Shown: positions 25,708-44,596, numbered from the stretch's first letter. The stretch is 64,000 nucleotides of DNA from Clostridia bacterium (GCA_017456895.1 JAFTIN010000006.1:5511-69510), one strand, 5' to 3'. Notes: generated by a model not told the origin, from the letters alone. Numbers and translations: made by a program.

Positions 25708-28197
25708 CTATCTCAATTCTTCGCCGCAAAAGCATATTTCGGGAAGTCCAAATAGGATTCTGAAGAAGTTAATGATTAAACGTACGATAGTTTCAAAAAG
25801 ACCTGCTCCACATTTGGAGTGATCAATTTCCAATTCTATGATTTCACCGCAAGATTCACAAACCTTGGAGCTTTGCTCTTCAGTCCATTCGTGTCCGGGA
25901 GCGGCAATATCACGGATTTCGAATTTTTCGCAATCGGCGCAATCTCTACGTTCTACACCGTCTATTTCACACTTGGGAGCGATAACCTGAACCCAATCTT
26001 CATAGTTGTGTCCAGAAGCTTCGACCACGTTGGTTTCGCGATCGATCTCTACACCGCAGACATAACAATAAATTACGTTATCGTAAGAACCATCTGCCGT
26101 ACAAGTAGGCTCGACGTTATTTTCCGTCACTTCTTTATCACGAGTGTGCCCCAATGCGTCAACGTAATTATCAACGTAAGAGTCACCGCAGGTGCAGGTG
26201 TAAGTGGTGTAACCCTGCTCTGTGCAGGTAGGAGAAATTGTCACGGCACTATAAAAGTGACCGCGCTTGGAGATAACGTTAGTTTCAAAAACGTTACATC
26301 TTGTACAATCACGTCTTTCAAGACCGTCCTCTGTACAGGTGGCGGGAGTTACTTCGTACCAATCACCGTAATTATGATTAAGGACGCTAACGTAATTATC
26401 AACGTAAGTGTCACCGCAGGTGCAGGTGTAAGTGGTGTAACCCTGCTCTGTGCAGGTGGGGGTGGTGATGATTGACGTGTAAGAGTGTGTATGACCGCCT
26501 TCCCAAACCTGAATATAATCAATGTAGGCATTGGTAAAGCCGTGGGTATCAGTACCCATATAAGGGAACACGAAGTCCTTGCCGGACAGCCAATCGGATG
26601 TGGCATGCTGATCCTTTGTGCCGATGTAATAATGATTCATAGGACCGATTTCTTCACCGTCCACAAACAGATAGACCATATTGGAGCCGTCTTCCGAAAT
26701 CCGGTTTTCCAGGCAGTAGGTATGCAGAGCCGTCCAGTCGATACCGTAATCACCCAGAGCTATGCCATAATTATGACTACCATTGGTTGTCTTTTCACCC
26801 ATAGAAATGATACCGTTCGTATTGCTCTTGAAAATATACCGTGCATTGTAGTTGGCGTTCACATTGTCAGAAGTGAAGACTCGGGCACCGCTGGAGCCGT
26901 TTGTGTTCAGGAACGTACCTTCGCACCTCCACTCTACGATCCAGGGCGAATCATGCAAAAGAACGACTTCATTTTCCAGCGTATAGCTTGTTTTGCTGAA
27001 CACACCGTCCGTGGTAGTACCGGAATTCTTTGTCAGAGTATTGCTGCCGCTAACGCAAGCCAGATCAGTTACGTCAAACTCCCAGCGATAGTCCTGCGAT
27101 TTGTGGTCTGTTGCTTCTGCGATAATGACCACATCACCGATGACAGAGTCTATGGATATCGTTCTGTTTGCATAGGTGGTGTCCGTAATATCCTCGCCAC
27201 CCATGGTCACGGAAACAGACAGTTCCTTGCCGTTCTCAGCCGTCAGTGTACAGGAAAAAGCATCACCGGAAACCACGATCTTATCGTCACCGTAGTCCGT
27301 CGTTACACCATCCAGATCAAAAGAAACAGTGTGGGTATCCACCTCGTAAGCGGTGTTTGCCAAGAGCGCCCGCTTGAACGCTTCCGTGTAGGCATCCATG
27401 CCAAGGCGGTTGGGATGCACTCGGCCGTCACCGATATAGGTGTCAAAATCAGCCATGGTAATGGCGCTGCCGTATATATCCACGATATGGGCGCCGAAAT
27501 GCTCCACCACCTGCTTCAGTTCAGCATTGAACGAGCGGATCAACTCATCCGTTCCATCAACACGCTGTGAAATATTTAGGTAGTACACCTCTGCATCCGG
27601 ATAACGCACCGATATCTTATGCAGCATGATGGCAGCAGCCTCCAACGAGGTGATCGGCTCGGAGTAGGTATAGCTGCCGTCCTCGTTCAGCAAAATCAAT
27701 TCGGTATAATCAATATCTGCCGTTCCCAAAGTTTCTTTGTAATACTGGAAGTCATTAGTACCCATCTGGATGCCGATAATGTCAGGTTCTTCACCGTCGT
27801 TATTATGTAGCTGCACACAGCGATCCACATAAGCGCCTACAGTACCGTTGCGCTCGTAGAGCAAAGAGGAACCGCTCCAGGAGTTGTTTACTAACAAGCG
27901 CAGTCCCAAGTCGTTTGCAAGTTGCATCCACCATGTGTCGTTAACATAGACGCCATGGCGACCTTCTGTATAATAGGTCGCGTTACTACCGATGGTAGAA
28001 TTTGAGTCGGGGTTATTGGATATCCCTGTGTATGTAGAAATACTGGCGCCAAGGATAGATACTTTCTTCCCTTCAAAAAGATTTTGGTCACTTGCAGAAT
28101 TTGTTGCCTCTGTAGCAAACGCCATCATCAACGTTATGCCGAGAAGTATCACAAGCGTCAGCAAAAAGCTGATTATCAGTTTATTTCTTAACTTCAC
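25708..28197 (-). CDS. secreted SGNH/GDSL-family hydrolase + lectin/LamG-like region + C-terminal Cys-triad repeats
   Basis: Signal peptide (V)KLRNKLIISFLLTLVILLGITLMMAFA. SGNH blocks GASIS, NNSWSGSS, MGTNDF, DGRVHPN. I moved the start to GTG 28197 (AGGAG 9 nt upstream) because the candidate promoter -10 lies only 15 nt from the track start 28224. Confidence 0.8.
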   Translation of the reverse strand: MKLRNKLIISFLLTLVILLGITLMMAFATEATNSASDQNLFEGKKVSILGASISTYTGISNNPDSNSTIGSNATYYTEGRHGVYVNDTWWMQLANDLGLRLLVNNSWSGSSLLYERNGTVGAYVDRCVQLHNNDGEEPDIIGIQMGTNDFQYYKETLGTADIDYTELILLNEDGSYTYSEPITSLEAAAIMLHKISVRYPDAEVYYLNISQRVDGTDELIRSFNAELKQVVEHFGAHIVDIYGSAITMADFDTYIGDGRVHPNRLGMDAYTEAFKRALLANTAYEVDTHTVSFDLDGVTTDYGDDKIVVSGDAFSCTLTAENGKELSVSVTMGGEDITDTTYANRTISIDSVIGDVVIIAEATDHKSQDYRWEFDVTDLACVSGSNTLTKNSGTTTDGVFSKTSYTLENEVVLLHDSPWIVEWRCEGTFLNTNGSSGARVFTSDNVNANYNARYIFKSNTNGIISMGEKTTNGSHNYGIALGDYGIDWTALHTYCLENRISEDGSNMVYLFVDGEEIGPMNHYYIGTKDQHATSDWLSGKDFVFPYMGTDTHGFTNAYIDYIQVWEGGHTHSYTSIITTPTCTEQGYTTYTCTCGDTYVDNYVSVLNHNYGDWYEVTPATCTEDGLERRDCTRCNVFETNVISKRGHFYSAVTISPTCTEQGYTTYTCTCGDSYVDNYVDALGHTRDKEVTENNVEPTCTADGSYDNVIYCYVCGVEIDRETNVVEASGHNYEDWVQVIAPKCEIDGVERRDCADCEKFEIRDIAAPGHEWTEEQSSKVCESCGEIIELEIDHSKCGAGLFETIVRLIINFFRILFGLPEICFCGEELR
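26162..26461. repeat. intragenic direct repeat pair (~72 nt, 2 mismatches) spaced 228 nt (76 codons) apart
   Basis: acgtaattatcaacgtaag.gtcaccgcaggtgcaggtgtaagtggtgtaaccctgctctgtgcaggt occurs at 26162 and at 26390. Confidence 0.85.
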
Positions 28198-28238
28198 GTA
28201 AATATCTCCTAAATCAGAAATCATTACATAATAATTTT

Positions 28239-32525: not shown

Positions 32526-32914
32526 ATAAAAAAGGCTTCCCGACGGGTTCCTACCATAAAGCAGGTTTTGAACTACCGAACAAAGAAAAAGGAGTACGGA
32601 CAATTTTGTTCGTACTCCTCTTCATACGCCTTGCCTGCAAGGTATAGTGTGTTACATCTTACGGTGTTCTGTCGGGCGGTAATTGTTGAAAAGTGATATG
32701 CCTCGCACGGCACGGCGTGATATTTTTGCTCCGCAAAAGTGATATTGCTCCCGCTGGTCGCATTGATATTCTATTCGCCTCTTTCTTCCAACGTGCGTAG
32801 CGCATATCACGTCCAAAGGACATATCACGCACGAAGTGCATATCACTCGCCGTAGGCGAATAGAGTTGGCGCACCTGCTTTATCGCAGTTGCGCCGACGG
32901 AAGCCTTTTTTATT
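32526..32914. repeat. ~390-bp inverted-repeat-bounded modular element (BOX/MITE-like) with GTGATAT heptamer arrays
   Basis: ATAAAAAAGGCTTCC and ATAAAGCAGGT occur at identical 30-nt offsets at both ends in inverted orientation. Four (G/T)TGATAT lie on the plus strand (32693, 32717, 32739, 32763) and three on the minus strand (32804, 32822, 32840). Confidence 0.75.
32581..32619 (-). terminator. rho-independent terminator for leftward transcripts
   Basis: 13-bp stem aggagtacggaca/tgttcgtactcct. The minus strand continues tttttctttg. Confidence 0.7.
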
Positions 32915-32929
32915 TTGTATAAGAAGGTG

Positions 32930-34291
32930 TTATTTCTGCTTATCTGCATCCTTCTCCATTTTCTTAAACATCTTCTCATATGGAGCTAGCATACCCTCGT
33001 TCATCTTGTTACCCATCTTAGAGAGGAGCTTCTCGTTTCCGAGAAGCATACCGACAAGGTGCATAAGAACAGAGCGGCCGCTGAAGCGCTTTGGAAAATC
33101 GTAGATCCCGGTCTTCTTGTAGAATTTATGGTCGGCGCGCATCATACCGCGCATCTCGAAAATAAGATCGCGGAAGATCTTCATTCCTCCTACTCCCCAG
33201 AAGTTTTTGGGAGCGGTGTGACCCGTCCTCAGCGCAAAGGCGAGACTCTCGGCGAGCTCGTCAACACGTCTGTTGGTATCGTATTCATCCGTGGCAACAC
33301 CGGAAAGAAAGTTGCCTCCGGTCTCTGCCCTCGCCTCGATAACGGTGCGCAGATTATTCTCCGCTGAATAGTTGCCCGAGATAAGATAGCCGACAGGCAT
33401 ACCTACCGTGACCGTCCTATGTCCGTTACAGAAATTGCGGTCATCATACATCTTAAAGCGCGAGCCCATGGAGTGATCGCTGATCTTAAAAGCGTAGACG
33501 ATAGCATCCGCAGTTTGTATATTCTCGCGTAGGAAAACATCAAATCCGTCCTTGTAAACGCATTTCTCCGAAACAGCGCAACGGAAGCAACCAAGGCAAC
33601 CGCCCGAGAGAGGATACTCCGAGATGTTGACCACACGGGTAGTATAAGGAAGTACAGCCCCGAATCTCTCGATCATACGTGAAAGGTTGGAGTCGTGGTC
33701 GGTCTCGTCGGTGAGAATAAGAACGTCCTTGTCCCCCGTCTTCTCGCCCTCACACATGCTCGGTGTCGCAGGGGTGAGAGTGTACGGCAGGGGCTCGCTT
33801 TTATTGACAAATATATTTTTATCTATCGACCAGAGAAAGCGCTCAAAGAATGCTTTAGCGTCTTTTTTGCCAGCTTCAGTTAGCAAATCCTCCATATCTG
33901 CGGATAGTCCGCGAACATATTTCATTCCGAGGTCAAGAGCATTTTCCTCGATATATTTATGTGCGGTTATGTCGTAAAAGTGCTTGGAGGTGGAGATCTG
34001 AGTCGCCCATTTGCCCGAAAGATCTATGCCGTCAGCCTTTGTAAGCTCAATAAACCTATGTAGCTGTGAGGGAGCGAGGAAGGTATAAACCGGATAGGAA
34101 AATATGACCGCGTCGGAAGAAGAAAGAAGCTCGCGAGCCTCTGTAAAATCCTTCTCAAGCGCCTTGATCCTCTGCCCTGCGTGAAGGACGGTAAACTCGT
34201 GCTCCGGATATATGATACCGAGATATCTGACGGTCTGCAGAGTCACGCTGTACTTCCCCTTAGGGCTACCGTTTATTACTGCTATTTTCAT
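32930..34291 (-). CDS. flavodoxin-fold NAD(P)H-dependent oxidoreductase (two tandem flavodoxin-like halves)
   Basis: 453 aa. MKIAVINGSPKGK...IFSYPVY. The second half has a CLGCFRC..C Cys cluster. Confidence 0.78.
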   Translation of the reverse strand: MKIAVINGSPKGKYSVTLQTVRYLGIIYPEHEFTVLHAGQRIKALEKDFTEARELLSSSDAVIFSYPVYTFLAPSQLHRFIELTKADGIDLSGKWATQISTSKHFYDITAHKYIEENALDLGMKYVRGLSADMEDLLTEAGKKDAKAFFERFLWSIDKNIFVNKSEPLPYTLTPATPSMCEGEKTGDKDVLILTDETDHDSNLSRMIERFGAVLPYTTRVVNISEYPLSGGCLGCFRCAVSEKCVYKDGFDVFLRENIQTADAIVYAFKISDHSMGSRFKMYDDRNFCNGHRTVTVGMPVGYLISGNYSAENNLRTVIEARAETGGNFLSGVATDEYDTNRRVDELAESLAFALRTGHTAPKNFWGVGGMKIFRDLIFEMRGMMRADHKFYKKTGIYDFPKRFSGRSVLMHLVGMLLGNEKLLSKMGNKMNEGMLAPYEKMFKKMEKDADKQK

Positions 34292-34359: not shown

Positions 34360-34389
34360 GGAGCGGCTCGCGAAAATGCGAGCCGCTCC
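34360..34389 (-). terminator. rho-independent terminator of the 42708->34412 operon
   Basis: 12-bp stem ggagcggctcgc/gcgagccgctcc. The minus strand continues ttatattt. Confidence 0.8.
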
Positions 34390-34411: not shown

Positions 34412-37400
34412 TTAATGGTAAAGCTCAAATACTGCGGAAAGTCCGCCCTGATGAAGGACTACCTGATCCGCGGTAGCAAATGCAGTGATGATAGCCGCAG
34501 TATCGGGAGATCCTGTACCGATAGCAAGTCCGTTCATATCGTAGAAGGTACCGGACTCGCCCTCTTGTACGAAGTAGATGGTGTGTGCCGTGCCGTCAGG
34601 ACCTACTGCGGTAAGGAAGGGAGCGCCTGCCTGGAAGTAAGAATTCTGAAGGATAGCAGCCCATTCTGCCTCGAAGTTCTCGGTCGCTTCATACCATCTC
34701 TCAACGCCTATACCGTCGAAGGTCGCAGTGCCTTGGATCATACCGTCGGTGAGAGCGTCTGTGCTGGAGCCTCTGGGCATAAGGATCGCCTTGATATTCA
34801 TCTTGCCCTGACTGTCTACCCAGGTCGCATTCACGGTGTTGCCCATCGCACCGGTTACGGTGGAAACGAGCTGATCAAGACCGCCGCCGAGCGCCTTGAT
34901 ATTACCTACGATACCGGTTGCGCCGACCGCCTTGAACCATACCTCCTCACCTGTTACGTGAGTCTCGATCACAGAGCCGTTGACCGTGGTTACGGGGCTA
35001 TAGTAGGATTCTGTGCCGTTTACGTTCTCCTTAACGCTCTGGGAGATAATGACGGGTCCGCCCGAGCCGTTGATGTAGCTGTTCTCTATGTTGAGCGTGG
35101 AGTCAGCCCATACGAACGCGCTGTTCTGATAGGAGTCGTAGCACTTGGAGTCCGTCACGCTAAGTGTGCCGGAGTAGTCCGGGAAGTAAGCGATGAAGAA
35201 GGAGTTGTTGACCGTGTTGGTCATAGCGGTGCTTGCGTATCTCGCAGACTTAAGAAGGATAAGTCCGCCTGCGGTAACAAGATTGCCGTCGGTCTCACCG
35301 TCCACCCAATTGTCTCTGGACGCGTTGCCGATGAAGGTAATATTCTCAATGGAGATCTCGGGAACTGCTACGGGAGTCCAGTTGGAGGAGATAGCCTCGA
35401 ACATAAAGAGTGTTGCGTTGGAGTAATCGTCGCCGTAATCAAGATCGAGGTCGGCATCGAATACTGCGGGAGATGCGATAAGCGGGAAGTTCCTCGTATC
35501 GATAGCGAAGAAGTTACCCTCGATCACAAAATCGGAGGAGCCTGTGCGTCTGTAAATAAAGGTACCGTCAATAAGGTACTTAGTTCCTTCAGGAGCAACG
35601 CTCGTATCTACTACCTCACCGTCAACGATCTTGTAATAGGTTACGTCCTTTTTAGACACGTTGAAGAAGGATGCGGGAACATCGGACGCGCTGATGTGAA
35701 TGTCGTTGTGGATAACGATGCCTGCGGGAGATACGCCTGTAAGACCCTTGTCTGCCTTGAATGCATTCCAATCATCGCGCCCGGTGTAGTTATCGATAAC
35801 GGCAAGCTGCCATGCCTCGTATACGTTGTAGGCGTCGATTACGCGTGCCTCAAGAACGAGAGGATTGGTATTGTTGAGTATATAATACTCATCCGAGGGA
35901 AGAACGCTGATCTTTATCTTCTCGGCAACAGCCTTGAAGCTGTAAAGTCCGTTATAGGTATCAACCACAGCAAAGAGCTCGGAGCCAAGATAATAGGAAA
36001 CCATAGTAGGCTTCTGAGGATCTTGGGTCTTTTCAAGCAGGACGTACTCGCTTCCGTCGTGATAATAGATATCAACGTCGGTATAGTAGGAGGAAAGCGA
36101 CTTAGGAGAGCCGTTATCGAGAACCGAGAACAGAGGATTGAGTCTGAACTCGTTGTCGTCACCGATAGTATAGAGCTTGCCGCCGTTAAGGAACTGACCG
36201 GAGAAGCCGGTGTCGCCGTAGTTAAGCGTGCCTGCGTTCTTGTTATCGCTGTCGAAGGAGGTGAGGCTGCCGGGCTTCTCAAACTGAGTTACGGTAGGCT
36301 TTGCCTCGATCACGGTAACCTGGAAGGTAGCGCCTGCGGTCTCGTTGTTCACCTCGTCGGTGAAGCTGACGGCAACGGTCTTGGTACCTGCTAGGGAGGT
36401 GTCGACAGTGCCGACGGTGAGCTTATCATAGCCGAGCTCAACGACCTTGCCGCTGAGGTAAGTAACGGTAATGGTAAGACCTGTGAAGTCGGGGGTCTCG
36501 CCTACCTCGTAGGAGGTATCGAAGCTGCCGCCAACGGTGATGGATGCGATCTCGTTCTTAAGAACGGTGATGGAAATGTTGCCTGCCGCAGCCGTGCCTA
36601 CGTTAACAGCCTTAAGGATAGAGGAGGTGGCAACGGTGCCGCCCGCAACGGTAACCTTAGAGGGATCAACGGTCTCGGTCACGCCCTCAAGATGCGCATA
36701 GGATGCGACAACTACAAGGCCGGTGTAGTCGATGGTCTCGCCTACGTAATAGGTGGTCTTATCGGGCATAGAGGAGATGGAGTATGTGGGGCTGTATACC
36801 TTGATGGTGAGGTAGACGTAGAGTCTGCCCGTAACGGCATCGGTATATGCTATAGAAACGTTAACGCTCTTACCGTTCTTCGCGCCCTCCTTGGTAAGCG
36901 CGGAGATATCGGAGGAAACGATGGTGAGCTCGGTGAGAGGGATATTCTCTACCGCGGGAGTACCGTCGTTATAGGTAACGGTGAGGGTAAGGCCGGTAAG
37001 GTCGAGTGCCTCGCCCTGCTTGTAGTTAAGCTTTACACCCTCGGTGTTAAGCGTGGGAGTTGCAATTATATCACCGACGGCAACGACGAACTCACCGATC
37101 TTTACATCGCCGATCTTGACCTCAACGGGCTTCTGACCGGGGGTAGCGGTAATGTTCTGCTCGTGGACGAAGGTGAGCGATGCAAAGGGCACGCTCTCGC
37201 TCCTGCCGAAGTGGTATACCGCGGTAACCGCGATGCCATCGAAGGAGACGGTGTCACCCTCGAAATAGGTGAGAGTCATACCCGAGGTGTCAACGGTGTA
37301 GCTCTCGATGGCGTCGACCTTGACGGTGAAGCTGTCAGAGCCCTGTACACCCGAGATGGGGTCGAGGTAATGAACGATGACCGTCTTTTCGCCCGCTGTG

Positions 37401-38182
37401 CTCATATCAAGAGTGTCCGCGGTGAAGTCGGTGACCGTCCTCGTCTCGCCGTTCTCGTAGCTGACGGTAAGGGTAAGTCCGGAAAGGTCAAGCACGTCGC
37501 CTGCCATATATTCGGTCTTTACGTTCTCGGAGTTAAGAAGAGTCTCGGTGATCGCGGGATACTTAACGGTAACCGTGATCGCGCCTGCGCTCTTACCGTC
37601 GTAGGTCACGACGATATTCTTGGAGCCGGGGGCCGCGGTGATATCGGTGGAGTAGCTATAGGAGATCTTGGTAAGATCGGTCATTTCTACGTCAGCACCG
37701 CCGTTTGTGAACTTCTCAATAACCTTCACGCCCGTGAAGTCGACGTCCTCACCCACAAAGTAGGTGGTCTTCATACCCGAGCAGTCGACCTCGTAGCCTG
37801 CGTGCTTAGGTGCGTTGGGATCCTCGGAAACGGTGATCTGCACGTAAGCCTTCTGCTCTACGTTAAGGTTGGGGTCAAGGAAGGAGACGGTGACAGTCTT
37901 CTGACCCGGGGTCGCAGTGATGTCGTCGTCATAGGTGATGGTGAGCTCATCAAAGGTGTAGACCTTAGTGAGAGACTCGTCTGAGTAAACGGCTGTCGCC
38001 TGTATACCGGAGAAGTCGATCTCCTCGCCGACGTAGTAAGCAGTCTTTACCGTCGAGCGGTCTACGGTAAAGCTCTTAAGGCTAAGAGAGCCGGTAAGTA
38101 AGGTACAGGATGCCATAACGAGGAGCACGCTGACAAGCAGGAGTGCCGTTATGACCTTTTTGGATGTGCGAGGTGTTTTCAT
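34412..38182 (-). CDS. 1256-aa surface lipoprotein: 7 Big_3-like Ig repeats + ~630-aa beta-helix-like C-terminal region
   Basis: Lipobox LLVMASC. Seven repeats of the pattern Y.VGE.(I/L)D(F/L)(S/T)G(I/L)...V.Y. The C-terminal half has PbH1-like segments (IENITFIGNA..., NIENSYINGSGGPVII). Confidence 0.85.
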   Translation of the reverse strand: MKTPRTSKKVITALLLVSVLLVMASCTLLTGSLSLKSFTVDRSTVKTAYYVGEEIDFSGIQATAVYSDESLTKVYTFDELTITYDDDITATPGQKTVTVSFLDPNLNVEQKAYVQITVSEDPNAPKHAGYEVDCSGMKTTYFVGEDVDFTGVKVIEKFTNGGADVEMTDLTKISYSYSTDITAAPGSKNIVVTYDGKSAGAITVTVKYPAITETLLNSENVKTEYMAGDVLDLSGLTLTVSYENGETRTVTDFTADTLDMSTAGEKTVIVHYLDPISGVQGSDSFTVKVDAIESYTVDTSGMTLTYFEGDTVSFDGIAVTAVYHFGRSESVPFASLTFVHEQNITATPGQKPVEVKIGDVKIGEFVVAVGDIIATPTLNTEGVKLNYKQGEALDLTGLTLTVTYNDGTPAVENIPLTELTIVSSDISALTKEGAKNGKSVNVSIAYTDAVTGRLYVYLTIKVYSPTYSISSMPDKTTYYVGETIDYTGLVVVASYAHLEGVTETVDPSKVTVAGGTVATSSILKAVNVGTAAAGNISITVLKNEIASITVGGSFDTSYEVGETPDFTGLTITVTYLSGKVVELGYDKLTVGTVDTSLAGTKTVAVSFTDEVNNETAGATFQVTVIEAKPTVTQFEKPGSLTSFDSDNKNAGTLNYGDTGFSGQFLNGGKLYTIGDDNEFRLNPLFSVLDNGSPKSLSSYYTDVDIYYHDGSEYVLLEKTQDPQKPTMVSYYLGSELFAVVDTYNGLYSFKAVAEKIKISVLPSDEYYILNNTNPLVLEARVIDAYNVYEAWQLAVIDNYTGRDDWNAFKADKGLTGVSPAGIVIHNDIHISASDVPASFFNVSKKDVTYYKIVDGEVVDTSVAPEGTKYLIDGTFIYRRTGSSDFVIEGNFFAIDTRNFPLIASPAVFDADLDLDYGDDYSNATLFMFEAISSNWTPVAVPEISIENITFIGNASRDNWVDGETDGNLVTAGGLILLKSARYASTAMTNTVNNSFFIAYFPDYSGTLSVTDSKCYDSYQNSAFVWADSTLNIENSYINGSGGPVIISQSVKENVNGTESYYSPVTTVNGSVIETHVTGEEVWFKAVGATGIVGNIKALGGGLDQLVSTVTGAMGNTVNATWVDSQGKMNIKAILMPRGSSTDALTDGMIQGTATFDGIGVERWYEATENFEAEWAAILQNSYFQAGAPFLTAVGPDGTAHTIYFVQEGESGTFYDMNGLAIGTGSPDTAAIITAFATADQVVLHQGGLSAVFELYH

Positions 38183-38237: not shown

Positions 38238-38744
38238 TTAGTTTGCTTGTGAGCGCCCCATTATGGAAACACTGGTGCTCTTGTTAGATCCGTCAGTCGC
38301 CTTAATCGTGATGGTAAAGACGGTATCGGGCTTCAGAAAGACAAAGGTCTTGCTCACCTCGTGAAAGACTGCAACGCCCTGCATAGCCGCCTCGTCAAAC
38401 TCAAATCTGACGCCTGTCTCATCGGCAAGATGAGGCATTACCTCGTAGTTGATCTGGACTGCGTTCGGGTTGGTGATAACGCTCTCGTCATCCGCGGTGT
38501 ACTCTGCCCCGCCCGGTGCGGGAATAAAGTCGAAGATGAAAAGAGGTATATCGTGCATAGGACCGATGTAGTCCGAGGGGGTCAGGGTCTTCGGATTCTC
38601 ATTCTGTACCGTGACGGTATCGCACTGAATATTGGATACGTAGGTGATGCCGTCAAAGATCTTGACCTCGAGGCCAAAGAAATTTACTATCGCTATCGAG
38701 GCGATATACACAGCGAGAATTATAATTACTATCGTCTTTTTCAT
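38238..38744 (-). CDS. small N-terminally anchored beta-sandwich-like protein
   Basis: 168 aa with a single N-terminal TM (MKKTIVIIILAVYIASIAIVNFF). ATG lies 2 nt after the upstream stop. Confidence 0.7.
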   Translation of the reverse strand: MKKTIVIIILAVYIASIAIVNFFGLEVKIFDGITYVSNIQCDTVTVQNENPKTLTPSDYIGPMHDIPLFIFDFIPAPGGAEYTADDESVITNPNAVQINYEVMPHLADETGVRFEFDEAAMQGVAVFHEVSKTFVFLKPDTVFTITIKATDGSNKSTSVSIMGRSQAN

Positions 38745-38746
38745 TA

Positions 38747-40441
38747 TTACTTCTCCTTATAAAACGCCTTGATCTTGGAAACATAGGTGACCGCCTTGAA
38801 CGAGGCGAGTATAACGGTCACTACAGCAAGCTTTGTCCACACGCCGCTATTCGACTTTGACGAGAGGAAAAGCGCAACGATAAACACTACCGCGGAGATA
38901 AGAACAGCAAGAATAGCCGAGCCGGACTCGTTAGGGTTATTCGACTGCTCGCTGAAGGTGGCGTACTGCTCGTATTGAGGGTTCATAATATCACGCTCCG
39001 CGCTCATAAAGAGGTGAGAGACGTATACTGCGTAAACGGTGATGCCGAACATAAGTGAATCCGTCCTTGAAAGCGAGGTAAAGCCCGCAAAGATCGAGAC
39101 GGTAGCCACCGTGCCGATAAGGGAGATCACCATCGGGAAGAACAGCTTTGAATAAAGGAGGACGGCATACGGAGTGGGTTGCACCTTGTTAAGGTAGGAG
39201 CTGGAGCCGTCTCGACTATATACTGATGCAAGACTAATGTTGGTCATAAGAAGAATGAGAAGTATTATCATTGCATTAAAGCAGACGGTCATCTGCTTAC
39301 CGGTATAGTCAAGATTCATTGATGAATAAAGCTTGTTGAGTAGATATATCGCCATAGGCATGATTACAATAAGAATGCCTGCAAGCTTAATAAAGTAGTT
39401 AGAGCGAAGGCCGCTCGTCCACTCCTTTTTAATAGCGGAGAGGAAGGGCGAAAGCTTCCTGTTTCTCCTCTCCTTTGCGGCATTTTTCTTCTTGAACTCG
39501 AATGGAGTCGCAGCCATACGGCAAAACAATGGCTTCGAGATAAGGAAGCAAAGGACAAGCGCGATCATATCCACGAGCCCGAGAACCAAAAGACTCTTTA
39601 CTGTCTCAGAGTGAAAAATGATATTGGTAAGACCGACAGTCTTGCCCACTATGAGCTCAGTGAACTTGTAGATCGGGGAGAATATCTCCGTATAGGACTT
39701 AAGGAAATTCTGTATATCCCAATAGGTCTCGCCCCATGACTCAATGAAATTGATGTCAGCGGGAATGATGCGGAGCACCGCCCAAAGAAGGGCTATACCA
39801 ACCACCGCCGCAAGCGAATAAAGAACATACTGAAGCACCTTAACACGGTTTAAAAACACGTAAATGTACATCGCGGGGATCGAGAGAAGCGCAGAAATAA
39901 GCACGGGCACCGTAGATATAAGCACAAACATCACAAAGAGCCAAGGATAGTAATACGCTCCATAACCCTTAGCAATTCCGAAGGCGATGAACATCGGTAT
40001 AGTGAACATAAAGCTCTTACGTATCTCGTATACGTAGTAGGTTGCAAGCTTGGATAGAAATATAAGAGAGGGAGTCGCCGGGAACGTAAGAAGCACCGAA
40101 TTATCCTTGGAAAAATACAGCGACTTCATAAGTCCCGCCGTGTCGGTCACAACCGACAGAAGAAGCATTACTCCAAACACGATCGATATGACCGAGACCG
40201 GTATATCCCGCACGAGCGAAAACAGGCCGAGCAGCTTCACGTAACTGAAGAGGACAGTCAGCACTGCAGTTATCGCCGCAAACTCTATAAGCAACCATAC
40301 GAGCTTGAATATCAGTCTGCGCGTCGAGCGAAGATAGCTTAGATCCATCTTCTCCTTCAGTTGCATTTTGACAAGAGTCAAAAGTGCGGAAAGCGACTCG
40401 CGTATCGATTCAAGGCAGAATGTGTTTTTCACCTTCGTCAT
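38747..40441 (-). CDS. multi-pass membrane protein, putative ABC-exporter permease
   Basis: 564 aa, >=12 hydrophobic segments. ATGA overlap with the upstream ABC ATPase fusion gene. I recall the Pfam 'putative ABC exporter' family as similar in size and context (unverified). Confidence 0.75.
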   Translation of the reverse strand: MTKVKNTFCLESIRESLSALLTLVKMQLKEKMDLSYLRSTRRLIFKLVWLLIEFAAITAVLTVLFSYVKLLGLFSLVRDIPVSVISIVFGVMLLLSVVTDTAGLMKSLYFSKDNSVLLTFPATPSLIFLSKLATYYVYEIRKSFMFTIPMFIAFGIAKGYGAYYYPWLFVMFVLISTVPVLISALLSIPAMYIYVFLNRVKVLQYVLYSLAAVVGIALLWAVLRIIPADINFIESWGETYWDIQNFLKSYTEIFSPIYKFTELIVGKTVGLTNIIFHSETVKSLLVLGLVDMIALVLCFLISKPLFCRMAATPFEFKKKNAAKERRNRKLSPFLSAIKKEWTSGLRSNYFIKLAGILIVIMPMAIYLLNKLYSSMNLDYTGKQMTVCFNAMIILLILLMTNISLASVYSRDGSSSYLNKVQPTPYAVLLYSKLFFPMVISLIGTVATVSIFAGFTSLSRTDSLMFGITVYAVYVSHLFMSAERDIMNPQYEQYATFSEQSNNPNESGSAILAVLISAVVFIVALFLSSKSNSGVWTKLAVVTVILASFKAVTYVSKIKAFYKEK

Positions 40442-42708
40442 ACGGTCACTCCCTTGGCAACTCTTTCCCTCTCCTCGGCCTCTTTAAGAGATACCGGCGG
40501 ATGGGTGTTGCCGTCAATAGTGTTCATATAGAAGGTCTCGAGCGGTACCCCGCTCTCCTTGATCTCAGCAACAGTTTTGGTGGTGAGGATCTGACCCTTA
40601 CGGATAATGGCGATCCTGTCGCAGATGTTCTCAACGACATCAATAATATGGCTGGAGAAGAAGACTATGTTACCCTTTGCCGCATGCTCCTTCATACACT
40701 CCTTGACCTGGAAGATGGACTCCGGATCAAGGCCTGTGAGGGGCTCGTCGAGTATCCATATCTTCGGATTATGGACGAGGGCGGACATAATGGTTATCTT
40801 CTGCTTCATACCGTGGGAGTAGGTCTTCATTGGGTTGTCTATTGATCCCTCAAGACGGAATCTGGCAACGTACTCCGCAATCCTCTCATCTCGGTCCTGC
40901 TCCGAGACCTTGTATAGGTCAGCGATATAATTGACATACTCTCGGCCGGTGAGGTTCTCATAGAGAGCGTAATGATCGGGAACGAATCCTATCTGCATCT
41001 TAGCACCTACAGACTGCTTGTCCACGTCGTAACCTGAAACCTCGATCTCACCCGAGGTGATGGTCTGTATGCCTACTATGGATTTAATTATTGTTGACTT
41101 GCCCGCGCCGTTAGGACCGAGGAAGCCGAATATCTGTCCTCCCTCTATCTCGAGGTTGGCGTCATAAACAGCGTAAACGTCGCTGGTGGAATATCTCTTT
41201 GAGAAATGACGGAGGATAAGCTTACCCTCGTTTTCAGGATTCATAGGCTCTTGCATACTTCTACCTGCAAGATGCACCTCCAGAGCGAGTCTGTCAGCCT
41301 TTATCTTGCGGTTCCTTTCCATAATGATTGCGTATGTGTCGGTTATCTCGAATATCTGCTCGTATAGGAACCACATAGCGAATGAAAGAACTATGTAGAC
41401 CACAAAATAAATGAGCTGATATACGGGATAAAGTATAAATTTGAAGTCTCCGATCTTTAGGATCGTGTTAATGTCAAAGGTGATATCTCTCAGGTCCTCC
41501 GCCCAGTCGCCGAGCTTGGACGCGACAAAGTCGGAGTTGATGAAGAAGAAGTCGGTCTCGTTGCCCATACCCGTGAGCACGGCGTTCGCCACGAGGACGA
41601 AGGCGTAGTAGCAGAAGAAGGCGATGAGAGAGTAGGCAAACTGCTTCATCTTCGGGCGTCTGAAGATGCCGAGTGTCATAATAAGCACGGGAAGCGCGAA
41701 GGCAATATAGTGGTTGAACCAGAACTCGAAGGTCCTCGTGGCAAGCCAATTCGCACCGTCGGTGTTCGGCATTATCATCGCTAAGAATGCGCCGAGCACG
41801 TTAATGAATATCGTGAAGTAATAGAGTTTCTCCATCCTGAAGATCAGGACCAGAGGGATGATGAACATCGCTGTATTGCAAAGGTGGAGCGGCCAGTCCT
41901 CAAGGTGGAGGAAGGTCGAGAAGTCGTACTTAAAGCAGAAGGAGATCATCGTCGCTATGCTTATGTAAAGAAGGGCGTATCTCTTCTGCTCATAGGTGCG
42001 CTTTCTCAATAAGAAGTGTATCGCAAAGATAAACACGAGCGAGCCGTAAAGCACTATTCTGTGATACACGTTGAAGTCGTCGACCTTGATCGCGCTGTTG
42101 CCAAATCCGAAGATCGCCTGCGGTGCCCACGCGGGAAGATTAATAAGGAACATTCCGACGAAGATGAGGGCTGTGGTGAGCCACCCTTTTGCCGTCTGCT
42201 TTATCCTCACACCATCAAGGAGAAGCCTTGAGGAAAGACCGAGTCCGACACCGAGCTCAAGAGCAAAGATGAGGCTGCGCCAGTGAAAGACGTCGGCAAG
42301 CTCGCCGTCCATACCGCGGCAGAGCATCGGAAGAGCGATTATCGAGACGAGATACACCGCGGGCGCAACGTAGCGAACAATGGGTGTCACCCTCGGCAGA
42401 TGCTCCTCGAAGAATACGTAGCTAACAACGGTAAGCTGAACCGTAAATATGAGCCAAAGAAGAAGGACCGAGAAAAAGGCCTTTACACTTCCCGTCGCAC
42501 CGAACGGAGAATAAATGTTGAGTCCTACCGTACTCTGCAGAGCATACTCACCGCCGAACGAGCGTACGAAGAATAGGACGCCGTATAGACAGGCCAAAAG
42601 CTTTTTCATATTTAGATTTTTAAAGAGATTCCTGTCTTTAGTGAAATACAACAGGGCAAATGAGCCTAATGCAAACAGCAGGGCTCCGAGGTAGTAAACG
42701 ACCGTCAA
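40438..42708 (-). CDS. fusion protein: ~480-aa polytopic domain with YwaF/TMEM164-like WPLHLC core + C-terminal ABC ATPase
   Basis: 756 aa, TTG 42708 with GGAGGA 7 nt upstream. WPLHLCN is encoded at 41878..41895. Walker A GPNGAGKST, signature YSHGMKQK, Walker B WILDEP. Confidence 0.85.
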   Translation of the reverse strand: MTVVYYLGALLFALGSFALLYFTKDRNLFKNLNMKKLLACLYGVLFFVRSFGGEYALQSTVGLNIYSPFGATGSVKAFFSVLLLWLIFTVQLTVVSYVFFEEHLPRVTPIVRYVAPAVYLVSIIALPMLCRGMDGELADVFHWRSLIFALELGVGLGLSSRLLLDGVRIKQTAKGWLTTALIFVGMFLINLPAWAPQAIFGFGNSAIKVDDFNVYHRIVLYGSLVFIFAIHFLLRKRTYEQKRYALLYISIATMISFCFKYDFSTFLHLEDWPLHLCNTAMFIIPLVLIFRMEKLYYFTIFINVLGAFLAMIMPNTDGANWLATRTFEFWFNHYIAFALPVLIMTLGIFRRPKMKQFAYSLIAFFCYYAFVLVANAVLTGMGNETDFFFINSDFVASKLGDWAEDLRDITFDINTILKIGDFKFILYPVYQLIYFVVYIVLSFAMWFLYEQIFEITDTYAIIMERNRKIKADRLALEVHLAGRSMQEPMNPENEGKLILRHFSKRYSTSDVYAVYDANLEIEGGQIFGFLGPNGAGKSTIIKSIVGIQTITSGEIEVSGYDVDKQSVGAKMQIGFVPDHYALYENLTGREYVNYIADLYKVSEQDRDERIAEYVARFRLEGSIDNPMKTYSHGMKQKITIMSALVHNPKIWILDEPLTGLDPESIFQVKECMKEHAAKGNIVFFSSHIIDVVENICDRIAIIRKGQILTTKTVAEIKESGVPLETFYMNTIDGNTHPPVSLKEAEERERVAKGVTV

Positions 42709-42767
42709 GGTGTGATCCTCCGATATGTTTATTTAGTGGCAAAATACCGCAAAACATGCAAAAAAAC

Positions 42768-42807
42768 ATGAGTTTGGCTCGAATTATCACACCCGAGCCA
42801 AACTCAT
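42768..42807 (-). terminator. rho-independent terminator of the 5'-nucleotidase gene
   Basis: 14-bp stem atgagtttggctcg/cgagccaaactcat. The minus strand continues gttttttt. Confidence 0.88.
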
Positions 42808-42976
42808 TATAAACAAGAATGCCTATATTGTAAAGTAAAATTAATAAATCTTCATATTTTTTAATAAAGAATAATAATTACAAAGCAGTGCTTTTAATAA
42901 ATCCTTTTCAAAGCGATGAGCGTCGAATTATATTTGCCCAAGACACGGTATGCTTGTACGAACAATCGCACTCAAA

Positions 42977-44596
42977 TCACTCATTCTCACGTCTTTCAAA
43001 ATACATAGCTACAAGATCTCTTGCATAAACGTTCACATCATATCTTGCCACTTCCGTAAGCCTATTGTAAACATAAGTTGACGAATACGTATCAGTAACG
43101 ACATAATACCTCGCATCGAGATCTATGTTGTTTTCAAGATAAGTAAGATCATCACCGTAGATATAGTAATTCTTGTTAGACGTGGTGAGAAACTTGCTAT
43201 ACAGGTCCCTGCCGGATATTGAGCACAGGACGATCTGATTGTCAAACGGGAGAATTGAATAAAGGTCACTGTAGGTCACAGTACCTGCGTAAAGATTATA
43301 AGGACTGCGCGCGGAAATAAATCCTCCGCCGAGAACGATGTCATATTCCTCTCCCCACTTTTCGACGCCCGCTTCATAATAGAGCTTGGCAACCAATTGC
43401 TTAATTGCGGTCGAGGACATATAAGAGGGATTGTTACCAACAACTCTGTATGCCGGCGCGATCTCATCAGCATACCTTGACAGCAGCTCATCGACAAGAG
43501 GGTCTGCACTAAGATTTGTATAAACTCCGGACCTCACGACCTCGGGAGAGAGGACATTTCTGTTCTCGTTCGCAGTATTGTACTTAAGCTTAGCATGAGA
43601 AAGACCGCTATTCTCTCCTCCGCCCTGGATATGATATACCCCTTTTGTATCGTAAAGTACGTAGGACTGATGCGTGTGCGCCTCAAATACGAGATCCACG
43701 TAGCCGTCCGAAAGCTCAATATCGTAATAAGAGGAAAGAGCGCTGTCAGAAACAGCCTTTTTACCCGAGGAGCTCTGGCCGTAGCCATCATGAATAGAAT
43801 AGACGATAAACTCAACACCGAGCGAACGCAGTCTGTCTGCCTCCGCCTTAACGAGCTCGGTAAGCTCGTCACCGACTTTAAAATAAAAGCCGCCAACCAC
43901 TTCGCCTGAGATGGAGGAGTAGCAGTCGCCGATGGCACCAATAATGCCGATCTCTATACCTCCCCTGCTGACGATCACCGAAGGAGTAGCGTAATCTGCC
44001 CTCTCGTTCGTGTCCCTTTCATAGACATTGATAGCAAGAAACGGAAAGTCTGTATTCTCAAGGTTTGAATAGATGTACTCGTCACCCCAGTCATACTCAT
44101 GATTACCGAGAGTCATAGAGACAAAGCCGAGCTCACTCATCCAATCTGTTAGCAGTGCACCGTGAGTAAGATTTGACTCGGAGGTACCCTGCCACATATC
44201 TCCCGTGGAGAGAAGAACGGTATTATCATCGGACACGTTCTTCAGGTAGGTTGTAAGTCCCGAAATGCCGGGCTGGGAATCGCTCTTCACTATCTTACCG
44301 TGAAGGTCGTTTATCGCGTAGACGTCGACAATAACTATTACCGACTCCGAGCAGACGTCGCACAGACCGTTATCGTCAACGTCCCTATGCGAGGTACAAT
44401 CTTCATCGGTATCCGTGCTGCCGCTCTGATCACCGTTATCCCCTGTATCCGAGCTATCGTTTTCACCGCCGGCAGAAGGACCCCCCATTCCGCCAATATC
44501 GTTTGTCGGTCCGAAGAACTCCTTAACTCTGTCCACAAGACCGCAGCCGGTGAGCAGGAAGCACAGAAGCAGGACAAGAGCTATTAATTTTCTCAT
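42977..44596 (-). CDS. lipoprotein 5'-nucleotidase / calcineurin-like metallophosphoesterase
   Basis: Lipobox LLTGC. DLHGK, GDMWQGT, GNHEYDWG motifs. An N-terminal D-rich linker carries CTSHRDVDDNGLCDVC. Confidence 0.88.
   Translation of the reverse strand: MRKLIALVLLLCFLLTGCGLVDRVKEFFGPTNDIGGMGGPSAGGENDSSDTGDNGDQSGSTDTDEDCTSHRDVDDNGLCDVCSESVIVIVDVYAINDLHGKIVKSDSQPGISGLTTYLKNVSDDNTVLLSTGDMWQGTSESNLTHGALLTDWMSELGFVSMTLGNHEYDWGDEYIYSNLENTDFPFLAINVYERDTNERADYATPSVIVSRGGIEIGIIGAIGDCYSSISGEVVGGFYFKVGDELTELVKAEADRLRSLGVEFIVYSIHDGYGQSSSGKKAVSDSALSSYYDIELSDGYVDLVFEAHTHQSYVLYDTKGVYHIQGGGENSGLSHAKLKYNTANENRNVLSPEVVRSGVYTNLSADPLVDELLSRYADEIAPAYRVVGNNPSYMSSTAIKQLVAKLYYEAGVEKWGEEYDIVLGGGFISARSPYNLYAGTVTYSDLYSILPFDNQIVLCSISGRDLYSKFLTTSNKNYYIYGDDLTYLENNIDLDARYYVVTDTYSSTYVYNRLTEVARYDVNVYARDLVAMYFERRENE

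Follow-up and report, generated by a model that had tools for sequence, protein, structure and literature searches.

A TMEM164/YwaF-Type Membrane Domain Fused to an ABC ATPase in a Conserved Four-Gene Cassette of Uncultured Gut Clostridia

Introduction

This report concerns a gene, called D, in a 64,000-nucleotide stretch of DNA from a Clostridia bacterium (GCA_017456895.1 JAFTIN010000006.1:5511-69510; the whole stretch is referred to as the window, and all coordinates are positions in this 64-kb window). Its product joins a polytopic membrane part, with a core resembling human TMEM164 and bacterial YwaF, to an ATP-binding cassette (ABC) ATPase, and the gene stands in a conserved cassette with genes C, B, and A. 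A first-pass annotation had described gene D as such a fusion and suggested that a lipid or acyl modification step is coupled to export.

Human TMEM164 (PDB 9lw1/9lw3) is a phospholipid-to-lyso-ether-lipid transacylase in which Cys123 carries the acyl thioester, catalytic His181 positions the phosphate, His124 and Glu106 are ligands of a metal ion, and Gly155 opens the pocket (PMC12830759; bioRxiv 10.1101/2022.07.06.498872). Its family profile, PF14808, matches gene D significantly over a region of seven transmembrane (TM) helices, and in gene D, too, a cysteine lies on core TM2 and a histidine on core TM4. However, identity is only about 15%, and gene D is bacterial and adds a six-TM extension and a fused ABC ATPase. 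The YwaF proteins (TIGR02206) have an LPLHLC-type motif in common with gene D, which differs in scoring under the curated cutoff, in its longer 13-TM layout, and in being tied to ABC genes.

The statement made at first pass that bacterial members of this group have no assigned function still holds for the YwaF branch but no longer for its sister YpjA (DUF1405), now named LhaT (PMC12345273). Work from 2025 identified LhaT of B. subtilis as an N-acetyltransferase of lipoproteins that acts at the outer face of the membrane; the donor, acetyl-heptaprenylglycerol, is made in the cytosol, and to the authors it was unclear how this carrier crosses the membrane (PMC12345273). Like the predicted gene D enzyme, LhaT is an integral-membrane, extracytoplasmic transferase of the ATGY superfamily, its acceptor being a lipoprotein and its donor lipid-linked; unlike gene D, it has six TM helices and stands alone, with neither an ABC partner nor a cognate lipoprotein gene. 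The two belong to different families, and we link them by analogy only.

A functional parallel is offered by Lnt followed by LolCDE, where a transferase that forms an acyl-cysteine thioester acts on a membrane lipid and an ABC machine then handles lipoproteins. There is no homology: Lnt has a nitrilase fold, LolCE are MacB-type permeases, and the system is diderm. The present hosts, by contrast, are Clostridia, in which the parts are either fused or share an operon with one cargo. LplT-Aas, MprF, peptidase-containing ABC transporters (PCAT), and LptB2FG-LptC likewise join modification by an enzyme to the translocation of a lipid or a protein, and LptC, a single-pass partner that inserts its TM helix into an ABC transporter, recalls gene B; these are, however, different families, none with a TMEM164/YwaF-type domain. 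A full-text literature search returned no description of an ABC fusion with such a domain or of this operon, in agreement with the first-pass remark that no described system of this kind was known. What is new is the domain architecture and the operon, both built from known families.

Results

Gene D and the parts of its product are located as follows.

40438-42708, minus strand: gene D, 756-aa fusion protein, predicted 13-TM membrane part plus ABC ATPase, TTG start
42094-42708, minus strand: residues 1-205, N-terminal six-TM extension (helices of the AlphaFold2 model)
41359-42069, minus strand: residues 214-450, TMEM164/YwaF-like (ATGY superfamily) seven-TM core (PF14808, TIGR02206)
41224-41358, minus strand: residues 451-495, linker region, in which the last TM helix is prolonged as a cytoplasmic helix, then a short linker
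40519-41223, minus strand: residues 496-730, ABC ATPase domain (PF00005, Foldseek)

The 756-aa open reading frame (ORF) proposed at first pass, beginning at a TTG with the Shine-Dalgarno sequence GGAGGA 7 nt upstream, could be verified in the sequence; no other start codon lies between the upstream stop and this TTG, and alignments of homologs begin at residue 1. The translation contains GPNGAGKST, YSHGMKQK, WILDEP, and VLGAFLAMIMPN. An AlphaFold2 (AF2) model of the full protein, built on a 56-sequence alignment, reached pLDDT 89.3 and pTM 0.72, and the membrane part modeled alone reached 94.4 and 0.91. Helix 428-480 of the model is the last TM helix running on as a long cytoplasmic helix toward the ATPase.

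The fusion is widespread. A search of 5.8 billion proteins for gene D homologs returned more than 120 clusters at 69-99% identity, about 750 aa long and with the same PF14808 plus PF00005 architecture (two close homologs carry the NCBI name 'YwaF family protein [Clostridia bacterium]'). When one genome per GTDB species was scanned, at least 147 gene-D-type stretches were found, with the fusion uninterrupted in at least 147 species genomes. It is intact at each of the 80 loci kept for comparison, at identities from 88% down to 47%. All 80 loci come from metagenome-assembled genomes or other assemblies of uncultured organisms, from ruminant, human, and other animal gut samples, and are labeled Clostridia, Eubacteriales, Oscillospiraceae, Christensenellaceae, or Borkfalkia.

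Because the same fusion occurs in independent assemblies, a chimeric assembly join is excluded. An assembly or frameshift artifact joining two genes might be suspected from the free-standing versions of both halves in other genomes, but the same continuous ORF recurs in over 120 clusters and in 147 or more species genomes assembled independently, and the AF2 model has a confident continuous helix across the junction; an artifact is thus left with a negligible probability, and we have rejected it. The covalent fusion seen at first pass is genuine.

Gene D is the first of four genes whose order, D-C-B-A, is fixed across relatives, as seen in tblastn comparisons of the window neighbors with the 80 loci; the search of other genomes suggested at first pass thus recovered conserved neighbors along with the fusion.

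38747-40441, minus strand: gene C, 564-aa polytopic membrane protein, PF16949 (ABC_tran_2), presumed permease
38238-38744, minus strand: gene B, 168-aa single-pass membrane protein with an immunoglobulin (Ig)-like ectodomain
34412-38182, minus strand: gene A, 1256-aa lipoprotein with signal peptide and lipobox LVMAS-C26
42806-42834, minus strand: promoter-like site TTTACA-17-TATAAT upstream of gene D, 11/12 matches, a consensus match only
34360-34389, minus strand: terminator-like hairpin, 12 pairs, 10 of them G-C, 23 nt past the gene A stop; likely the end of the D-C-B-A operon

The stop of D and the start of C overlap by 4 nt in the window; in most relatives the overlap is 4 or 8 nt. Gene B abuts gene C, and gene A follows after a short gap. 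Gene C lies directly 3' of D wherever a contig extends past D among the 80 loci. It scores 29.9 bits against PF16949 (gathering threshold 25.7), a family matched by 16 of 22 gene C homologs with a best E of 1.6e-16. A search found no solved relative of gene C, which is without a large extracytoplasmic loop and in which an internal duplication was looked for and none detected. Gene B was detected at 42 of the 80 loci, with a gap of matching size at most others; its N-terminal TM helix is strongly conserved (consensus MKKxxxIxIxxxYIASIxVVGFFGM), and its ectodomain is beta-rich and was judged Ig-like by sequence pattern.

The gene A product is predicted to be lipidated, with the lipobox cysteine present in all 68 recoverable homologs. 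Seven Big_3 Ig-like repeats are followed by a conserved C-terminal domain of about 630 aa (about 34415-36310), for which one of 12 members shows a weak Beta_helix match. Homologs range from about 700 to about 1290 aa, and sequence coverage places the variation in the N-terminal Big_3 region; we estimate one to seven repeats before a constant C-terminal domain, which suggests a stalk of tunable length. The spacing from the lipidated cysteine to the first Ig domain is just 2-10 residues in these homologs.

Genes beyond the cassette on either side, including an upstream 875-aa gene, are not conserved with D-C-B-A at the 80 loci. NCBIfam has no model for gene C, B, or A. Because no D, C, B, or A protein reaches a specific curated NCBIfam cutoff, current genome annotation misses the system. 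An anti-phage defense system was considered and rejected, since PADLOC returned no match for C, B, or A and nothing beyond general similarity to ABC ATPases.

The two halves of gene D also exist apart. Searched with phmmer against 1.84 billion representative proteins, the membrane part gave only 262 matches at E <= 0.001. Complete proteins among the best 150 of these are about 450-830 aa long, shorter entries being mostly partial matches; of the same 150, 56 are fusions that keep the P-x-[HQ]-x-C motif intact, and 33 stand alone, measure about 450-510 aa, and share the 13-TM layout. Unfused relatives stop just past the long cytoplasmic helix 428-480.

Four unfused relatives were traced by exact look-up on contigs showing their neighbors. 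In three, the TMEM164-like gene is followed by an ABC_tran gene (241-255 aa) and then by a PF16949-like permease gene, the free-standing ATPases being 50-65% identical to the gene D ATPase domain. Past the permease, these split cassettes encode a small anchored or Big_2 protein; in distant loci the position of gene B is taken by an N-terminally anchored Big_2 protein of 307-317 aa. The two split loci that reach far enough (L081 and L083) also have a large downstream lipoprotein, in L081 with a gene-A-type domain (E 6e-80) and in L083 an 826-aa protein with a lipobox-like LIAC within its N-terminal signal sequence. The fusion is facultative: its halves also occur as adjacent genes of the same cassette. 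The membrane enzyme and the ATPase are functional partners, since they are fused in some genomes and adjacent in others, and gene C appears to be the transporter's own membrane subunit, since the split cassettes keep the order ATPase then permease.

Homology of the gene D core to the TMEM164 family is established by hidden Markov model (HMM) evidence. PF14808 matches residues 216-441 with E 1.1e-18 and 68 bits against a cutoff of 25, and is precomputed on all 120 homologs among the matches listed. TIGR02206 (current title 'TMEM164-related integral membrane acyltransferase'), run against the membrane part alone, scores 64.8 bits over residues 214-379 (E 6.9e-18), under its curated cutoff of 75; by these scores gene D is related to this YwaF subfamily and not a canonical member. 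Because the PF14808 threshold is passed, the TIGR02206 cutoff failed, and DUF1405 unmatched, the core is classed, by profile, as a distinct 'long' 13-TM subfamily of the superfamily, tied to ABC genes. The YwaF/TMEM164 assignment made at first pass for the membrane part therefore stands for residues ~214-450 only, and with TIGR02206 below cutoff.

Residues 1-205 match no known family in Pfam and NCBIfam scans, and their comparison with the core by hhalign gave a weak, non-significant probability of internal duplication (only 11.5%); the six-TM extension is kept in fused and unfused relatives alike. One relative of 1062 aa (P0126) has an additional, low-complexity Gly/Ser/Thr/Glu-rich N-terminal extension of about 300 aa before the 13-TM domain.

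Human TMEM164 (9lw1) is the only PDB sequence matched by the core family profile at E <= 10, and the match is weak (E 0.072); the alignment pairs Pro273 with Pro122, His275 with His124, and His333 with His181. An hhalign comparison with a TMEM164 fragment (P 6e-5, probability 65%) also pairs His333 with His181, and Gly306 with Gly155 and Pro314 with Pro163. As a direct sequence query against the PDB, the membrane part gave no match.

The conserved positions cluster in two motifs.

41878-41895, minus strand: WPLHLC motif, with the Cys277 codon at 41878-41880
41704-41724, minus strand: FWFNHYI motif, from the sequence
41710-41712, minus strand: His333 codon (FWFNH), aligned to catalytic His181 of human TMEM164

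The WPLHLC motif is where it was placed at first pass, and its cysteine is invariant. In 69 aligned relatives at 20-91% identity, Cys277 and Tyr367 are each kept in 69/69, His333, Pro273, and Gly306 each in 68/69, Asn303 in 66/69, and His216 in 58/69; position 275 is His in 53 and Gln in 13. In the AF2 model, Cys277 opens helix 276-290, and His333 is inside helix 324-345, two helices on. The arrangement that marks the TMEM164 family, a nucleophile (Cys, Ser, or Thr) on core TM2 and an invariant histidine on core TM4, is found here in Cys277 and His333, and Cys277 is a putative acyl-accepting nucleophile.

In two fused lineages (P0140 and P0197), Cys277, His275, and His333 have all been lost together: the motifs read LPLGLSQ with FWVNQ and WPLGITS with FWSKG, and the ATPase and the whole membrane domain are kept. 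Both appear to be catalytically inactive forms of this machine, and the joint loss argues that the three residues form one site.

A topology of 13 TM helices, N-terminus outside and C-terminus inside, is predicted from the AF2 helices and from the distribution of Lys and Arg (positive-inside rule). All positively charged loops share the ATPase side of the membrane: residues 23-33 (TKDRNLFKNLNMKK), 165-172, 235-238 with the start of the next helix (RKRTYEQKRY), 291-292 (RMEK), and 346-353 (RRPKMK). Cys277 is predicted at the extracytoplasmic end of TM9, His333 about nine residues inward from the outer end of TM11, and His216 at the outer end of TM7. Cys277, His333, His216, and Gly306 would all lie in the outer-leaflet half of the membrane, so that with the positive-inside topology the conserved site would face the outer leaflet.

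The retention of the membrane domain in P0140 and P0197, where the catalytic residues are lost, would fit a machine working by FtsEX-like mechanotransmission. No substrate would be moved; ATP hydrolysis would switch lipoprotein A via B, and the TMEM164-like domain would be mainly a membrane scaffold or lipid sensor. The conservation of an extracellular partner along with a single-pass adaptor whose TM helix is highly conserved also fits. However, gene C has no sizeable extracytoplasmic domain like those of FtsX or MacB, the Pfam scan gave no FtsX or MacB family match for either D or C, and near-invariant Cys, His, and Gly across 20-91% identity speak for catalysis; we consider mechanotransmission improbable.

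The C-terminus of gene D is, by sequence, a complete ABC-2/DrrA-like ATPase and a member of neither the named DrrA nor the named GldA system. PF00005 (ABC_tran) matches residues 516-657 with E 1.2e-27, bearing out the canonical ATPase reported at first pass. Walker A (GPNGAGKST), signature (YSHGMKQK), Walker B (WILDEP, with the catalytic Glu), D-loop (LTGLD), and H-switch (His687) are present, with motif residues invariant in 56 aligned sequences. TIGR01188 (DrrA) is the best NCBIfam ATPase match at 207.5 against a cutoff of 312, and TIGR03522 (GldA) scores 198.9 against 403. When the full gene D model was submitted to Foldseek, ATPase matches filled the list; at the top are EcsA, TM0544, and LptB (E down to 3.5e-17, TM-score to target 0.86-0.92), and ABCA proteins are also among the matches.

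The order of membrane domain, long helix, and ATPase resembles that of half-transporters, and one could take the TMEM164-like part as the transmembrane domain of an ordinary transmembrane domain-nucleotide-binding domain protein, with C an unrelated co-transcribed protein and no enzymatic step. This is very unlikely: Foldseek shows no structural similarity of the membrane part to any ABC membrane domain, PF16949 is a putative ABC component according to Pfam, C trails the ATPase even when the ATPase is separate, and the conserved Cys/His pair would be left unexplained. Like mechanotransmission, it is less consistent with the data. The large polytopic domain described at first pass is borne out by the 13 predicted TM helices. 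The likely permease is the separate downstream gene C; the TMEM164-like domain is therefore less probably the membrane domain of the transporter itself than an enzyme module accessory to it.

Several other features of the window were noted. A perfect 17-bp hairpin with a U-run lies in the gene D 5' leader (42768-42807, minus strand), directly after the promoter-like -10 box and about 170 nt past the end of the 5'-nucleotidase gene upstream. It could serve either as an attenuator or as a terminator for that gene. With its surroundings (42700-42850, 151 nt) it has a folding energy of -43 kcal/mol (z-score -4.9), and no riboswitch or leader RNA family of Rfam matches upstream of gene D. The gene just upstream (42977-44596, minus strand) encodes a 539-aa 5'-nucleotidase/metallophosphatase with a lipoprotein signal (LLTGC), and adjoins the cassette only in the closest relatives (L001-L007). 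Antisense to gene A are two ORFs on the plus strand, 34415-36394 (659 aa) and 36692-37984 (430 aa), whose translations are of low complexity; most likely both are shadow ORFs and not genes.

The sole Rfam match in the window is a Gut-1 RNA (RF01706) at 32799-32868 on the minus strand (51 bits against a gathering cutoff of 50), located just 3' of a 453-aa gene at 32930-34291. An 838-aa ORF (25708-28224, minus strand) encodes an unusual repeat protein with an N-terminal TM helix and a hydrophobic tail, and has homologs in only three of the 80 loci; its C-terminal half consists of repeated Cys-rich units, for example TPTCTEQGYTTYTCTCGD.YVDNYV and CTEDGLERRDCTRC.

Discussion

The reading that we prefer, to which we give slightly less than an even chance, is that ATP-driven handling of lipid or lipoprotein is coupled to acyl transfer in the outer leaflet onto lipoprotein A, in analogy to the systems outlined above. 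Counted for it are the ATPase and TMEM164-like halves, fused or adjacent, and the overlapping genes of D-C-B-A; the conserved operon would also support the suggestion made at first pass that an acyl modification is coupled to export. In such a machine, two gene D subunits would supply the ATPase dimer that powers the gene C permease (D2:C), an arrangement that would hold two acyltransferase-like modules against the transporter, and gene B would dock on the complex via its conserved TM helix.

As in TMEM164, Cys277, helped by His333, would be acylated by a lipid donor, forming a thioester, and would hand the acyl group to an acceptor on the extracytoplasmic side, and the ABC transporter would flip or present a lipid-linked acyl donor, or else extract or reposition the acylated product. 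Lipoprotein A is the preferred acceptor because its alpha-amino group and lipid anchor would be exposed at the predicted site; the enzyme module may acylate its N-terminus or lipid anchor and in this way mature or anchor the surface protein. A bolder form of this proposal, which we hold to be rather doubtful, is that the cassette encodes a self-contained, ATP-powered lipoprotein-tailoring machine, the Clostridial functional counterpart of Lnt plus LolCDE, in which an ATGY transacylase wired to a transporter would N-acylate or re-anchor one dedicated giant surface lipoprotein.

A number of observations weigh against acyl transfer onto lipoprotein A. In the structural comparison with Foldseek proposed at first pass, the confident model of the membrane part matched nothing in the PDB significantly (best E 0.11, TM-score <= 0.22), and TMEM164 was absent from the top 50 matches. 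Cys277 is no more than a candidate equivalent of TMEM164 Cys123, lying three residues past the human cysteine in the HMM alignment, with Leu274 at the Cys123 position; the gene D alignment has no conserved counterpart of the metal ligand Glu106. Retention of the membrane domain in P0140 and P0197 points to a non-catalytic, structural role as well, and one of the four traced unfused relatives (P0234) is without adjacent ABC genes.

Gene D falls outside the LhaT family (no DUF1405 match in a Pfam scan at E up to 0.1), and no function is assigned to the YwaF branch in the literature found. Searches of Pfam, the PDB, and NCBIfam gave no match for the gene A C-terminal domain, and lipoprotein A may be a partner rather than a substrate. 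TMEM164 and Lnt both work without ATP, their donors being common membrane phospholipids, which offers no explanation for the transporter.

The main rival to acyl transfer onto lipoprotein A is the one nearest to TMEM164 chemistry, analogous to LplT-Aas and MprF: the module would re-acylate outer-leaflet lysolipids, possibly lyso-plasmalogens, with the transporter flipping the lysolipid or the product and lipoprotein A in a supporting role, for instance as an enzyme at the surface generating or capturing substrate. TMEM164, the only biochemically defined PF14808 relative, does move acyl chains from phospholipids to lyso-ether lipids, and the hosts are strictly anaerobic gut Clostridia, a group known to make plasmalogens. 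The predicted active-site residues are placed in the outer leaflet, movement of lipids is common among ABC-2/type V transporters, and the structural matches include LptB and ABCA proteins. Such remodeling would nevertheless not account for the lipoprotein and the single-pass protein, both dedicated, that nearly all cassettes encode, and no lipid-synthesis genes are conserved nearby at the 80 loci; on balance we think it unlikely, though it is the strongest competitor.

The fusion and the operon tie the uncharacterized and widespread YwaF branch to a transporter, an adaptor, and one specific surface lipoprotein, and the operon gives a concrete, testable hypothesis with a defined candidate substrate. 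Were acyl transfer onto lipoprotein A to prove correct, gene D would be the first ATGY enzyme mechanically coupled to a transporter, and the cassette would answer the question raised by LhaT of how an ATGY enzyme is supplied at the outer leaflet. Host TLR2 recognition is controlled by lipoprotein chemotype; the cassette would represent a new route of lipoprotein tailoring or anchoring in abundant gut Clostridia, including Christensenellaceae- and Oscillospiraceae-like lineages.

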